A DNA stretch of 63,282 bases, counting the filler, from Acidimicrobiia bacterium (GTDB taxonomy: Bacteria; Actinomycetota; Acidimicrobiia; Spongiisociales; SHLN01), in assembly GCA_041619515.1 (NCBI GenBank). It is 3 parts of 3 records of this genome, joined end to end, with 100 filler letters (N's around TTAATTAATTAA, not from the genome) between each part and the next. Parts side by side here need not be neighbours in the genome. Positions count along the whole stretch, not along the records: positions 29,718 to 59,276 come from JBFKDW010000034.1; 2 more parts are not named here. The stretch is one strand, 5' to 3'. The notes under the pieces were generated by a model. It searched no databases. It saw nothing but the letters and a program-made list of their open reading frames with translations, and was not told the origin of the DNA. Shown here one piece after another: positions 29,618-59,376 of this stretch. A program made the translations under genes and the position numbers. How positions within the stretch are numbered: position 1 is the first letter of the stretch; each line of letters opens with the position of its first letter.

Positions 29618-29717
29618 NNNNNNNNNNNNNNNNNNNNNNNNNNNNNNNNNNNNNNNNNNNNTTAATTAATTAANNNNNNNNNNNNNNNNNNNNNNNNNNN
29701 NNNNNNNNNNNNNNNNN
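29618..29717. other. Artificial contig linker (N44-TTAATTAATTAA-N44)
   Basis: Exactly 100 nt with a six-frame stop cassette; genes on both sides are cut mid-frame. Confidence 0.97.
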
Positions 29718-42214: not shown

Positions 42215-43240
42215 TCAGACGGCGGGCCAGGTCCTCCCCGTCGGGAAGAACGTCAAATAGTCCGACGGGAAGGCCGTGAACGCCGGCAGCCTGCCGAGGG
42301 CCTGGTCGGCCAGGGGACCCGAGCGACCGAGGCCCAGAAACGGGTCGAATACGGTGCCCGTCTCCGGGTCCACCAGCCCATCGGCGGTCAGTTCGAGATC
42401 GACGACCGCGGAGTCCAGCCGCCGGCTGAACACCGCCCAGCGGGCGGGGTCCTCGGGGTCGATCACAACGGCGATCTCGACGCCCGCGACCACGTCGTTG
42501 ACGACACCGACCTCCTGGAGGGCCCGGATGGCGTAAGCACTGGCTTCGGTTCCGAAATCGACCACGACCGCCATCTGGTCGAGATGGAAGCCGGTTTCCC
42601 AGGCAACCACGTCCAGGGCTGCCGTCTCAGGATGAGCGGTCCGCCACGCATTCCAGGTGGTGAGGGTGGACGGGATCAGTTCGAGACGGTCGCCGGTGCG
42701 AGGCCCGAGGATCGCCTCACCGAGCGGTTGACTCCAGATCGAGCCGGTGTCGTGGTCCCACCAGGTCATGGCGTTGCCCCACAGCGCCCCTTGATTGCCG
42801 AACACCAGCTCCTGTCCGTCCAATTGGCGGCGATGGACCATCGCCGTGGCACACAGTGGTCACCAAGAGACGAGGATCGGGTCGCCCTCCAGCGAGTCCA
42901 TCACCATCTCATGGCGATTCAGGTGCGTGATGGGGTACGCCTTGGCGGTTGCTGCTCCGGCAACGCCCACTACGAGCGAGTCGTCCGGCCATTCCACCCC
43001 GTCGGCCGATGTGAAGACCGGGTTGTATACCGGTTCGATCTGATCTCTGTCCAGCAGCGGCCGGTAGCCGGCCGGGAGGGTCTCTCCAGCGCGCACCGGG
43101 TCGTAGACGAGCGCCGGGTCGGCGGGCACCACGCCGCCGGTGACGGCTTCGGGGGACGAGCAGGCCCCGACGGCGAGAACGGCGACGCCAACCAGGCCCG
43201 CCAGCCAGGCGATTGAAGCGAATCGACGCCGTGGTTCCAC
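42215..43240 (-). CDS. DUF3179-domain lipoprotein, probable selenoprotein (in-frame TGA at 42860-42862, W-U-P-L-C)
   Basis: Track ORFs 42860-43240 and 42215-42841 share one frame; read-through gives KAYP...HEMVMD...PILVSW-U-PLCATAMV...WWDHDTGSIWSQ...TTWNAW..HP. The TGA occupies the first Cys of the family CPLC motif. Lipobox LAVGAC. Confidence 0.88.
42828..42846 (-). promoter_or_regulatory. Candidate bacterial SECIS hairpin
   Basis: mRNA sense CGGCGAUGG-U-CCAUCGCCG, a perfect inverted repeat beginning after a 13-nt spacer 3' of the UGA, with G in the apical loop. Confidence 0.75.
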
Positions 43241-46018: not shown

Positions 46019-48376
46019 TCAGGCCTCGACCGAGTCTCCCCTCCACGGGTGCGCTTTCAGCTCCGGGTCGTATTGACGCAGCGGGTGGCGGGCCGGGTCG
46101 AGCTCGAGGCTCGTGTCCCACGGTTCGAAGGCATTCTTCACGTTGCCGAGGCCGGTGGCCGCCAGCTCCGGAAAGTGGCGCAAGATGACGTTCTTGAAGC
46201 TGGACTCGTCGACCCAGCGCAAGCCTTCCTTGGAGTACACCTCCTCCCGGTAGTCGTCTGTGTAGAAGCGGTCGGCCTGCAAGCGCCGGCTGGCGTTGAG
46301 AATGAAGATCTGAAACATCGTCTCACCGAACCCGAACCCGGTTGGGCGGTGGCCCTCGCCAAGGGTCCCCACCAGCAGGTCGAGCTGCTCGACGTCATCG
46401 CCGTACACCTCTTTGAGCTTCGCAACCGTATCCGCGTCGTCGGTCAGGTCTTCGAAGGTGCGGATCGGCTTGAGACCCAGCTGGCGGCGGAACTCGTTGT
46501 AGCGGGGGACGCCGCGCTCGCGAGCTCGCAAGATATCGATGGCCCCCATGTCGAACACCGGGTTGCCCGGGATGCTCAGCTCCTGCATGAAGCGCGGATA
46601 GTTGTTGAGCACCAGCTGGCCGGGGTGCTGGTTGCCGAACGAGAAGAACAGGTCGGCCATGTCGACCCGCCCCGTCACCTTGGGTGATCCGGCCTGGCGA
46701 GTGGCCGGGAAGGGCACGTCCTCGATGTCCTCCCCGGTGGCGTGGCTTCGCAGCCGGAGGGATTCGGGCAGCAGCGAATGCAGCCGGTACACCTCGACGA
46801 ACTCCTCGGTCAGACCATAGGGCGAACCGTGCTTGTTGATCTTGTTACCGACCAGGCCGCCGAGCTCGGGATTGGCCACGTTGAAGTCGGCAACCGTCTT
46901 GCGATCCTTCGCCTTCCGGAACCGATAGGTGAGCATCCCATACCAGTTGGCGTTGAGCCCCATGTCGAGGCTCTTGTTGGGAAGGATGGCCGGAGTCCAC
47001 TCGACCGAGTGGATCTTGGCCATGACCGCGGCGTTCACCAGCCGGGCGACGTTGAACAGTCGGTGGTCGTCCCAGTCGGGATGATGCTCCTTGAGGTGGT
47101 CACAGATTGCGTTGTGTTCGCGGGCGAACAGGTCATGCAGCATCGAGAGGCCCACCCACCAGTTACGAACCATTCCGCTGTCCTCGACTCCGTTCTCGTC
47201 CAACGGCAGGGTGCCGTTCTCGTTGAGGCGCAGCTTGCCGTCCACGCCGCTGCGGAGCCGGTCCTGGGTCTGCTGGTCGCTTCCGTAGATCTGGGAACCG
47301 TCCCACCAGTGGGTCACCTCGTTGATGAAGGTGAGCGGCGTCTCCTCACCCAGATCCCGCCGGGTCGGGTCGGGCTGGGTACGACCGACGAACATATTGG
47401 CCTGGCGATACCGGGCGCGGGCCGGGTCGTCCTCGGCCAGCGGGATCTCCACGACCTCGGTGCTGAGGTTCTCACCGTGGGTGATCCAGTCGTGGTTCTG
47501 GAATTGGATCCACACCGCAGCCAGCATGTTGAGGAAGGGCACCTCCTTCATCTGCTCACCCCGGGTGAGCAGCGTCCTGCTGATCAGGCGTGGGTTGGGA
47601 GAAAGAAGCTCCTCATCCGACGGCAGCCTGATGGCCGAGTTGGCGACGTTGCGCGGGAATCGCGTGCCGGCCGCCCCTTCCTTGGGATCGTCGAGGTTGT
47701 TCCAGCTCCCGTCGGCCGTGCGGAAATGGGTCACGCCGGCGGGAGGGACGAGGCCATCGGGCTGGAACCCGATCTTGGCGCCGGTCGGGTAGGTGGACTT
47801 CAGATTGTCCCGGTTGAGCTTCTCGCGCATGTACGCCAGCGTGAGAATCCCGGTGTAGAGGCGCTTGCGGTACCAGTTGGTCCACACATCGCCCAGATAC
47901 CGCTTGCCGACCAGCGAGGTGAGGGCTCCGAACGTAGCCCCGCCGATGGTGCCGACGCCATGGCCGACGAGATAGCGCACTCGCCGCCAGATGTTGAGCC
48001 TGAGCCGTCCGGCGGGGGGCTCCGGGAGCGATGGGGTGGGTGGCGGACCGAGCAGCGCATCCCGCTCGAAGTAGTGCACGGGCGGGACGGGAACCTCGAT
48101 CTCGGCGCTGGCGTTTGCCTCGCTCACCTCCAGCATGTGCTGCCATTCGGCCCGGCCCCCGTTGGACTGGAGCGCCCGGGCGTAGTGCCGGGCGGCTTCC
48201 GAGTACCGCTCAGAATGGAAATGGGCGAGACCGAGCAGGGCCTCGCTCTCGCCACCCGGGTCACCCGCAGCGGCGTCCTCCAATCTCTTGGCGGCTCCCG
48301 CGAAGTTCCGCTCCTCCAACAAGCGGATTCCCTCGGCGCGAGCCGCCTCCCACCCTGTGTCGATCGGTGCGGTCAT
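46019..48376 (-). CDS. Peroxidase-cyclooxygenase superfamily heme enzyme (alpha-dioxygenase-like) with N-terminal TPR-like region
   Basis: RTADGSWN, WIQFQNHDW, THWWDGSQIYG, KIHSVEWTPA, EEFVEVYRLHSLLP, RERGVPRYNEFRR, ASRRLQADRF; N-terminal ALLGLAHF..ERYSEAARHYARAL. Confidence 0.9.
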   Translation of the reverse strand: MTAPIDTGWEAARAEGIRLLEERNFAGAAKRLEDAAAGDPGGESEALLGLAHFHSERYSEAARHYARALQSNGGRAEWQHMLEVSEANASAEIEVPVPPVHYFERDALLGPPPTPSLPEPPAGRLRLNIWRRVRYLVGHGVGTIGGATFGALTSLVGKRYLGDVWTNWYRKRLYTGILTLAYMREKLNRDNLKSTYPTGAKIGFQPDGLVPPAGVTHFRTADGSWNNLDDPKEGAAGTRFPRNVANSAIRLPSDEELLSPNPRLISRTLLTRGEQMKEVPFLNMLAAVWIQFQNHDWITHGENLSTEVVEIPLAEDDPARARYRQANMFVGRTQPDPTRRDLGEETPLTFINEVTHWWDGSQIYGSDQQTQDRLRSGVDGKLRLNENGTLPLDENGVEDSGMVRNWWVGLSMLHDLFAREHNAICDHLKEHHPDWDDHRLFNVARLVNAAVMAKIHSVEWTPAILPNKSLDMGLNANWYGMLTYRFRKAKDRKTVADFNVANPELGGLVGNKINKHGSPYGLTEEFVEVYRLHSLLPESLRLRSHATGEDIEDVPFPATRQAGSPKVTGRVDMADLFFSFGNQHPGQLVLNNYPRFMQELSIPGNPVFDMGAIDILRARERGVPRYNEFRRQLGLKPIRTFEDLTDDADTVAKLKEVYGDDVEQLDLLVGTLGEGHRPTGFGFGETMFQIFILNASRRLQADRFYTDDYREEVYSKEGLRWVDESSFKNVILRHFPELAATGLGNVKNAFEPWDTSLELDPARHPLRQYDPELKAHPWRGDSVEA

Positions 48377-48500
48377 ACCTACCCCTTTCTCACACCGGCG
48401 AGTTGAACGCCGCCGTGGATTCCCCCGAACCCTGCTGGCCATCGAGCCTACACGCCCACAAATCGCCCTGTCAGGGTCCCGTACAGCCGCCGGCCGGGCG

Positions 48501-49598
48501 CTACTCCGGGCGGGTGACGTCCGAAAGGTCGACGACGACGGTGGTTCCCACTCCGGGCTGAGACTCCAGCGCAATGGCACCGCCGTGGGCCTGCACCAGG
48601 TCCCGGCTGATCGTCAGTCCCAGGCCCGAGCCGCGCGACGTCGAGCCTTTGTGAAATCGATCAAACACGTGCTCCAGTTCGGAGGCATCGATCCCGCTGC
48701 CTGAATCAATGACTTCGACCACTGCTCCCCCGCCGTCGGGTCGGATGCGAAACAGCAGCCGCCCGCCCCCGGGCATGGCCCGGATGGCGTTGGTGGCCAG
48801 ATTCGTCAGGACCTCGCGGATTCGCACCGCATCCAGCATCAGCTCACCGACCTCGCCCTCCGCTTCGACCGAGATCGACACACCGCTCTCGGCTGCCCTC
48901 CGCCGGTAACCGTCGGCTACATCCTCGACGAGGCCGATCAGATTCGTCGCCTCCGGGTGGAGGGCGAGCCGCCCGGCGTCGATCAAGCTGAGCGTGCGCA
49001 GGTCCTCGAGGAGCCGTTCCATGGTCAGGACCTCGTTCATCAACAAGTTGAGATGATCGGCGTCGATCTCGTGCACACCGTCGAGCATGGCCTCGATCTC
49101 GCCGCGCACCACCGTGAGCGGAGTGCGCAGCTCGTGTCCCAGGTCGGCCAGCAATCGCCGGCGCTGTTCGTCGGCGGTCTCCAGCTGCCTGGCCATGTCG
49201 TTGAAGGAGTCGACAACTGCTCGAATGGAGCGGGATCCGCTCGGCTGCGCCCGGGCCGTGTAATCACCGTCGGCGAGGGCCCCGGCCGCCCGGATCAGCT
49301 GGCGGACCGGGCGCCAGGAGCGGGCGAACGACCGGCCGGCGAGGGCAACGCTCACCATCAGCAGCACAGGAACGAGGATGACGAAGGGCAGCCCCGCCAC
49401 CTCGGTGACGGCCGAGACCACCAACACGCCCACCGCCACCAGGACCACGAGGAAGATGCCGAACATGAGCACGCCGCGCACGAACATGCGCCGTCCGAAG
49501 CCCTGCCAGGCCTGGGCGCCCTTGCCGGGAGGCGGCCACCCGTGACCGGGAGGGCCCCACCAGCCCCCGGTCCCACCCGGCCCGAATCGCTCAGGCAT
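48501..49598 (-). CDS. HAMP-domain sensor histidine kinase (BaeS-like)
   Basis: Two TMs with a very short loop; HAMP; HELRTPL; NLATNA; DSGSG; GSGLGL. Confidence 0.93.
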   Translation of the reverse strand: MPERFGPGGTGGWWGPPGHGWPPPGKGAQAWQGFGRRMFVRGVLMFGIFLVVLVAVGVLVVSAVTEVAGLPFVILVPVLLMVSVALAGRSFARSWRPVRQLIRAAGALADGDYTARAQPSGSRSIRAVVDSFNDMARQLETADEQRRRLLADLGHELRTPLTVVRGEIEAMLDGVHEIDADHLNLLMNEVLTMERLLEDLRTLSLIDAGRLALHPEATNLIGLVEDVADGYRRRAAESGVSISVEAEGEVGELMLDAVRIREVLTNLATNAIRAMPGGGRLLFRIRPDGGGAVVEVIDSGSGIDASELEHVFDRFHKGSTSRGSGLGLTISRDLVQAHGGAIALESQPGVGTTVVVDLSDVTRPE

Positions 49599-59276: not shown

Positions 59277-59376
59277 NNNNNNNNNNNNNNNNNNNNNNNN
59301 NNNNNNNNNNNNNNNNNNNNTTAATTAATTAANNNNNNNNNNNNNNNNNNNNNNNNNNNNNNNNNNNNNNNNNNNN
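59277..59376. other. Artificial contig linker (N44-TTAATTAATTAA-N44)
   Basis: Identical in structure to 29618-29717. Confidence 0.97.

Follow-up and report, generated by a model that had tools for sequence, protein, structure and literature searches.

A probable DUF3179 selenoprotein with two predicted Rieske-like domains in an Acidimicrobiia bacterium

The DUF3179 gene and its reading frame

The window, by which we mean the whole 63,282-nucleotide stretch of DNA analysed here, is joined from contigs C33, C34 and C129 with N-containing spacers at 29618-29717 and 59277-59376, and synteny across these spacers is therefore artificial. The gene of interest lies in C34 and encodes a DUF3179 protein whose features are collected in Table 1. 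The neighbouring genes are unrelated and encode methyltransferases and VanZ-like, AlkZ, pirin and haem peroxidase proteins; the peroxidase (46019-48580, minus strand), ~2.8 kb upstream of the DUF3179 gene, is of the animal type and has an N-terminal TPR-like part.

Table 1. Features of the DUF3179 locus, in window positions
Feature	Position	Strand	Remarks
DUF3179 selenoprotein gene (predicted)	42215..43240	minus	341 aa with TGA read as Sec; start GTG at 43240, stop at 42215
Export/anchor segment (predicted)	43160..43240	minus	basic RRR, hydrophobic helix 8-26, lipobox-like V-G-A-C27
Predicted Rieske-like repeat 1 (residues 96-196)	42653..42955	minus	contains U-P-L-C; no Fe-S ligands
In-frame TGA, predicted Sec127	42860..42862	minus	position 1 of UxxC; Cys is invariant here in 31 aligned Cys homologues
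Cys130, likely resolving cysteine	42851..42853	minus	invariant; sole Cys of the mature region
Putative bacterial SECIS hairpin, CGGCGAUG-GUC-CAUCGCCG	42828..42846	minus	loop G at 42838, 21 nt past the UGA
Predicted Rieske-like repeat 2 (residues 230-325)	42266..42553	minus	D-P-E-D replaces U-P-L-C

ORF calling with table 11 divides the gene into pieces of 126 aa (43240-42860) and 208 aa (42841-42215). A preliminary description of this DNA had read them as one frame broken only by a TGA in W-U-P-L-C, naming no strand; translation of the minus-strand frame agrees, with a single internal TGA at 42862-42860 (U127) in the context S-W-U-P-L-C-A-T. Coding on the plus strand was rejected, its translation giving no sensible protein. 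The read-through protein matches Pfam PF11376 (DUF3179) with 165 bits (E 3.3e-48), above the 27-bit gathering cut-off, as expected from the family assignment made earlier, and an NCBIfam search with the protein assigned no family. The mis-splitting that had been predicted of standard pipelines has taken place, as the 208-aa piece is present in the protein collection at 100% identity (P0005).

The TGA is not an assembly error, since contigs of other runs show no codon change: the surrounding stretch is the same in contigs from two sequencing runs, possibly the source runs themselves, and in another study (X8) one contig spans the TGA, with no difference among those listed. These contigs keep TGA, where TGC or TGT would have spoken against Sec. 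Among the public runs listed as carrying the stretch none is of RNA, which has no bearing on expression. The TGA aligns with a conserved Cys of the homologues, the frame is kept on both sides of it, and the mature part contains exactly one Cys in 87/87 proteins of the TGA form.

The preliminary description had proposed an exported, lipid-anchored protein, and the first half of that proposal is supported. The N-terminus could be read in 86 TGA homologues: a hydrophobic segment is present in 84 of them, whereas a regular expression matched a lipobox motif in six, the window's copy included. Export and membrane anchoring are therefore likely to be conserved in the TGA homologues, mostly through a plain membrane anchor; a lipid anchor does not appear to be a family trait, and lipidation is possible for the window's own copy at V-G-A-C27.

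The SECIS hairpin and the selenocysteine machinery

The hairpin downstream of the TGA follows a 13-nt spacer and consists of an 8-bp stem closed by a GUC loop with G first (-12.8 kcal/mol). A 29-nt piece was compared with shuffled sequences and gave z = -2.76, with 3 of 200 shuffles as good, but three longer pieces gave z values of only -1.69, -0.61 and -0.30. A loose stem scan matches 8,759 TGAs. When the stem must have eight Watson-Crick pairs and the G must come early in the loop, such a hairpin follows 82 of the 58,271 TGA triplets in the genome (0.14%); by itself, the hairpin is thus weak evidence. It is conservation, rather than the presence of a hairpin, that gives strong sequence evidence for a SECIS element.

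Genes for this comparison were drawn from related loci, the genomes of relatives and a pattern scan of metagenomes. The set used holds 90 different TGA genes, that of the window among them, as well as nine Cys genes of the same clade; two loci without a motif match (L062 and L098) were left out of the counts, and six loci were duplicates of others. All eight stem pairs are intact in 87/90 TGA genes, against 2/9 Cys genes and the ~1% that codon usage alone would predict, and one stem pair is broken in the other three TGA genes. Synonymous sites in the stem are nearly frozen among the TGA genes (Thr ACG in 90/90, Ala GCG in 89/89, His CAT in 90/90, and for Arg 84 CGC plus five CGT), and the loop Val codon is variable. 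Outside the stem, the median top-codon share is 0.56, and a share of >=0.93 is reached in 3 of 107 other columns. The TGA genes are related, so their counts are not independent. The alignment that had been proposed as a check did show alternation of Cys and TGA. The two-sided covariation in the stem that was also expected was not found in the stem, which sits in conserved codons; the support comes from the frozen synonymous sites and from five G-C to G-U changes. At the level of sequence, purifying selection on the putative SECIS element is shown.

The hairpin agrees with the bSECIS model (PMC13188914, section 5) in all four of its constraints, and it shares with the consensus given there a 3-nt loop, an 8-bp stem, a loop G followed by U and a distance of 21 nt from UGA to loop. 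It differs in being near-invariant in sequence across the 90 genes. In a bacterial selenoprotein gene, the SECIS stem-loop is expected at 16-37 nt from the UGA, with a G at loop position 1 or 2 and conservation among the TGA forms, and the present hairpin agrees with this. No Rfam family matched the hairpin at gathering score.

The genome itself (3.10 Mb, 95.65% complete) encodes the required machinery. SelA and SelB, the latter above its cut-off, lie side by side on C59; SelD on C8 (C8:28233) has its own in-frame TGA; and C51 carries a tRNA-Sec with a TCA anticodon (Rfam, 72.4 bits). The machinery implied by the preliminary description, selA, selB, selC and selD, is therefore complete in one genome. 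The genome has at least seven selenoprotein genes, six of them TGA genes besides the DUF3179 gene of the window. TGA stands at the catalytic position, with a hairpin downstream, in genes for FdhA (C4:57847), a deiodinase-like protein (C2:18052) and a SelL/AhpC-like protein (C27:27423); the FdhA hairpin, like that of the DUF3179 gene, has a GUC triloop. On C61 (C61:5873, plus strand), an exported TlpA-like lipoprotein (lipobox A-A-A-C) has a TGA in W-A-P-H-U-P-T-C followed by a hairpin, and is likely a Sec thioredoxin acting outside the cytoplasm. A second Sec DUF3179 gene (C22:35562-37111, locus L049) has an identical 19-nt hairpin, and two further DUF3179 paralogues of this genome have Cys.

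The preliminary description had suggested using the hairpin to find further UGA genes. De novo scans proved too unspecific to define the selenoproteome, and in one of them the DUF3179 gene of the window itself did not pass the coding filter. Of nine scan candidates, the FdhA, deiodinase-like and SelL/AhpC-like genes held up and six failed, three being stops between adjacent genes and three lacking support; a TGA on C46 is a stop ahead of truA. Two TGAs are candidates at most. The one at C52:3445 (minus strand) separates a short ORF from a ceramidase-like membrane protein, and downstream of it the 5' arm is identical to the DUF3179 SECIS arm and the 3' arm is weak; the other, at C2:10280 (plus strand), belongs to a short ORF that matches no family and has a small hairpin.

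From this combined evidence, the TGA of the DUF3179 gene is almost certainly read as selenocysteine. The opposing reading, in which the TGA is a true stop that leaves a pseudogene or two separate genes, or is read as Trp, would explain why standard calling gives two ORFs, the second starting at an ATG, and why 89 of 120 proteins among the database matches listed are pieces of 195-219 aa. However, such a stop would cut a single predicted domain at an invariant residue in 90 genes, next to a conserved SECIS and in a genome with selABCD. Ordinary genes here, the DUF3179 gene among them, end in TGA; the only tRNA found with a TCA anticodon is tRNA-Sec, tRNA-Trp having CCA; and the homologues have Cys, not Trp, at the site. 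We regard a stop or Trp codon as barely credible, and the gene needs to be re-annotated as one ORF.

Homologues and Sec/Cys exchange in Acidimicrobiia

That DUF3179 includes selenoproteins is not new. The family is tabulated as a selenoprotein family with a UxxC/T motif in PMC13188914 and in PMC9312934; the former refers to Zhang and Gladyshev 2007 (PMC1976440), where hypothetical families are listed without names, and a membrane DUF3179 gene is merely listed in PMC9230427. NCBI names the Acidimicrobiia relatives 'DUF3179 domain-containing (seleno)protein'. The present gene shares with the catalogued DUF3179 selenoproteins (PF11376) the family, the position of UxxC, a single Sec and a SECIS right after the UGA, whereas the table rows give no fold, function or Acidimicrobiia example. 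Members of the clade described here are ~340 aa long with the signature WUPLC-x-TAMVHRR, stand apart from Cys-only paralogues in the same genomes and have switched repeatedly between Sec and Cys.

Actinomycetota names, nearly all of them Acidimicrobiia, are attached to 67/79 related loci, and TGA homologues reach down to ~51% identity. TGA at this site in relatives, which had been named as a check, was found in 90 homologous genes. We sampled 301 genomes of the class with a fixed-pattern search, a tally that includes the unpublished genome G270; another unpublished genome, G028, was counted in one tally and left out of alignments and trees. The TGA form occurs in 18 genomes and the Cys form in three, all within the order of the present organism. 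The preliminary description had considered Sec machinery uncommon in actinobacteria, which is overstated for this lineage. Sec is common in the class: selA exceeds its cut-off in 204/301 genomes (and in 80/90 of the order, as a row count) and is present in 17 of the 18 genomes with the TGA form. The exception, G024, has the TGA form without a selA or selB match, together with tRNA-Sec and a TGA-containing SelD, and its lack of selA and selB is likely an assembly gap. By family, selA is patchy, with 25 of 26 matches in a family with 1-Mb genomes and 1/16 and 1/7 in two others. Sec machinery has also been reported in Actinomarina, of the same class (preprint 10.64898/2026.04.03.716425).

In a quick tree of 137 rows, 125 clade members separate from 12 Cys-only paralogues on a 100% branch, and the Sec label requires 13 changes, eight of them forced by well-supported branches; 31 of the 38 Cys rows in this tree are database proteins, six of which are identical or nearly identical to TGC/TGT loci. 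In a smaller set of 53 rows (42 Sec genes, seven DNA-checked Cys genes and four outgroups), AU tests rejected a single Sec clade (p 6e-5) and a single Cys clade (p 4e-7). The Cys forms scattered in the Sec clade are likely to be repeated Sec-to-Cys reversions. Cys genes keep 5-8 of the eight stem pairs, which suggests SECIS decay after such reversions, this being the direction we infer. One genome, G022, has Cys in both DUF3179 and SelD. Locus L021 (G004:C19:80798-84781) has two adjacent copies, of which the upstream one has Cys and still an intact hairpin and the downstream one has TGA; the nearest relative of the Cys copy, L066, has TGA, and this is a very recent Sec/Cys switch. At two other loci, L075 and L088, the Sec gene is flanked on one side by a divergent gene for a Cys-only DUF3179 lipoprotein and on the other by MFS, CcdA and TlpA genes. 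According to a 2026 review, a change from Sec to Cys is a rare event in bacteria except in FdhA and SelD (PMC13188914, section 10), and the several switches and decaying SECIS relics of this clade contrast with the rarity stated there.

Predicted fold and possible chemistry

Modelled by AlphaFold with Cys in place of Sec, the protein is mainly beta (pLDDT 92, pTM 0.86). Its two repeats align with each other by HHalign (98.9%, E 1.7e-17), U-P-L-C being aligned with D-P-E-D, and by BLASTP (27% over 119 aa), and by sequence the protein is an internal duplication. In VIA-align, repeat 1, folded alone (pLDDT 93), aligned 92 residues to 2qpz (Z 8.9, rmsd 3.0), and the top 44 rows were of the Rieske fold before the next row fell to Z 4.4; repeat 2, compared with 48,161 chains, aligned 91 residues to 1vm9 (Z 9.1, rmsd 2.9), with 45 top Rieske-fold rows and the next at Z 4.1. 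The Rieske beta-sandwich is thus recovered in both predicted models, at Z values of ~9 that lie just above the range the tool calls common. Foldseek returned nothing at E <= 0.001, and gave many Rieske rows (probability 0.8-1.0) among beta-propeller rows. Repeat 2 matched a 32-sequence Rieske profile weakly in HHalign (14.9%, E 0.0018, with 29 shuffles at <= 2.0%), and repeat 1 (0.6%) and both repeats pooled (14.8%) were likewise weak, although the register agreed. There was no PF00355 row in Pfam searches of the protein and its members, no match for the DUF3179 protein in sequence searches of solved structures, and no usable match in an Atlas search with a natural Cys homologue from which PF11376 clusters were left out; searches for longer, fused homologues came back blank, which is weak evidence. 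On the strength of the models, a Rieske-like fold of both repeats is very probable. We found no literature linking DUF3179 to the Rieske fold, although the model classifications of ECOD, CATH and InterPro may already record it.

The model halves superpose over ~91 residues, at Z 8-9, on the Rieske [2Fe-2S] dioxygenase ferredoxins (2qpz, 1vm9, 3gce; rmsd 2.4-3.0) and PetC3 (5cxm), and likewise on NirD-type small subunits (3c0d, 4aiv, 2jo6), with 6-20% identity. NirD itself is not known to carry an Fe-S cluster. In contrast to Rieske domains, the DUF3179 protein lacks the ligands of box 1 (CxH) and box 2 (CxxH), has two copies per chain and carries U/CxxC on another hairpin. In a register taken from the weak profile alignment and range arithmetic rather than from inspected coordinates, the box-2 Cys/His positions correspond to Asp162/Thr165 and Asp291/Thr294 (D-P-E-T and D-H-D-T), no Cys or His matches box 1, ahead of which stands an invariant Arg, and U127-x-x-C130 falls on the hairpin preceding box 1, away from the cluster site. 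Since box-2 Cys/His are replaced by Asp/Thr and box 1 lacks ligands, the mature chain having only U127 and C130, the protein is Rieske-like in predicted fold and not a Rieske Fe-S protein; a shared fold, moreover, shows no function. Nor does the thioredoxin fold apply, as the models are mainly beta and place UxxC between two strands instead of a CxxC at a helix N-terminus. Elsewhere, a Rieske-family match with one in-frame TGA was noted at G009:C61:1976-2233 (minus strand).

We favour, on balance, an exported, membrane-anchored selenol/thiol oxidoreductase with a Sec-read TGA and two cluster-free Rieske-type domains. Sec127 would be the nucleophile; its extracytoplasmic target would be an oxidised substrate, in the likeliest case an envelope protein with a disulfide or an oxidised thiol, and Cys130 would resolve the adduct to give a selenenylsulfide. 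A TlpA-type thioredoxin, fed by CcdA, would then re-reduce the 127-130 selenenylsulfide, and repeat 2 may serve as a non-catalytic scaffold or docking domain. A single invariant U/CxxC with no other Cys in the mature chain is consistent with redox chemistry, and redox cycling of U127 and C130, rather than metal binding, is fairly probable. CcdA-TlpA as the electron source is a more tentative proposal. Within 6 kb of the gene, TlpA genes were found in nine of 74 loci, CcdA genes in nine and both in seven; the pairs are mostly on the opposite strand, facing the gene, in a few related lineages, and none is in the window. The one adjacent TlpA-CcdA pair of the present genome is on C124, and the Sec-TlpA protein of C61 is a candidate reductant of the DUF3179 proteins. 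Like components of CcdA/DsbD-TlpA/ResA relays, the DUF3179 protein is predicted to be exported and anchored with a U/CxxC, and TlpA and CcdA genes lie near some loci; it differs from them in not having the thioredoxin fold, no CcdA-TlpA operon was found in the loci examined, and the link to such a relay is a proposed one.

If Sec is inserted, U127 and C130 might instead bind a metal (Cu, Zn, Hg or As) or an Fe-S cluster, possibly one shared between the two chains of a dimer, in a surface protein that binds, traffics or detoxifies metal. In the models U/CxxC sits at a beta-hairpin turn, and zinc knuckles also place their ligands on such a turn; weak Pfam matches of some members to zinc ribbons (E 0.03-0.2), the invariant Glu111 and Asp115 nearby and the resemblance of the scaffold to a metalloprotein fold point the same way. 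However, each chain offers just two chalcogen ligands, and in the UxxT form of the catalogued motif the second of these is lost. Where distant paralogues have a His before Glu111, members of this clade mostly have Arg, no metal-homeostasis family recurs across the 74 loci, and alternation of Sec and Cys is usually the mark of a redox-active residue; metal binding, the main rival, seems unlikely. In another arrangement, the protein would pair with a small Yip1-like membrane protein in a two-part membrane module and supply its redox subunit outside the cytoplasm, acting on what this partner binds or moves and not on envelope thiols in general. The Yip1-like gene (PF04893, E 1.2e-5, under the cut-off) directly follows 37/85 TGA genes and 0/9 Cys genes, although the loci are related and the 37 pairings are not 37 independent events; in the present genome, the stop of the C22 paralogue overlaps the start of such a gene, of 177 aa. 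The neighbour is, however, missing at the window's gene and its closest relatives, and the partner has no conserved Cys. For the C22 paralogue, a predicted complex of repeat 2 alone with the adjacent Yip1-like protein scored 0.00, which speaks neither way. We consider this module improbable, and return to the thiol/selenol oxidoreductase as the preferred reading.

A wider reading of the family is possible, if rather doubtful. DUF3179 may be an unrecognised branch of the Rieske superfamily in which a duplicated domain lost its [2Fe-2S] cluster and gained a Sec/Cys pair on another hairpin, serving at the cell surface as the last station of electrons exported through CcdA and TlpA; Sec would then be the ancestral state of this Acidimicrobiia clade, repeatedly lost to Cys. 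What merits a second look is the prediction of a doubled Rieske fold without clusters, together with the recurrent switching between Sec and Cys. For Sec evolution, these switches and the presence of selA in about two-thirds of the sampled genomes of this Actinomycetota class are side results. The fold prediction would give a structural identity to a widespread family, together with candidate residues in U127, C130, E111, R138 and D162. If it is true, the Rieske scaffold would have been reused for thiol/selenol chemistry without iron, and DUF3179 would be a selenoenzyme built on a scaffold with which Sec chemistry had not been associated before.
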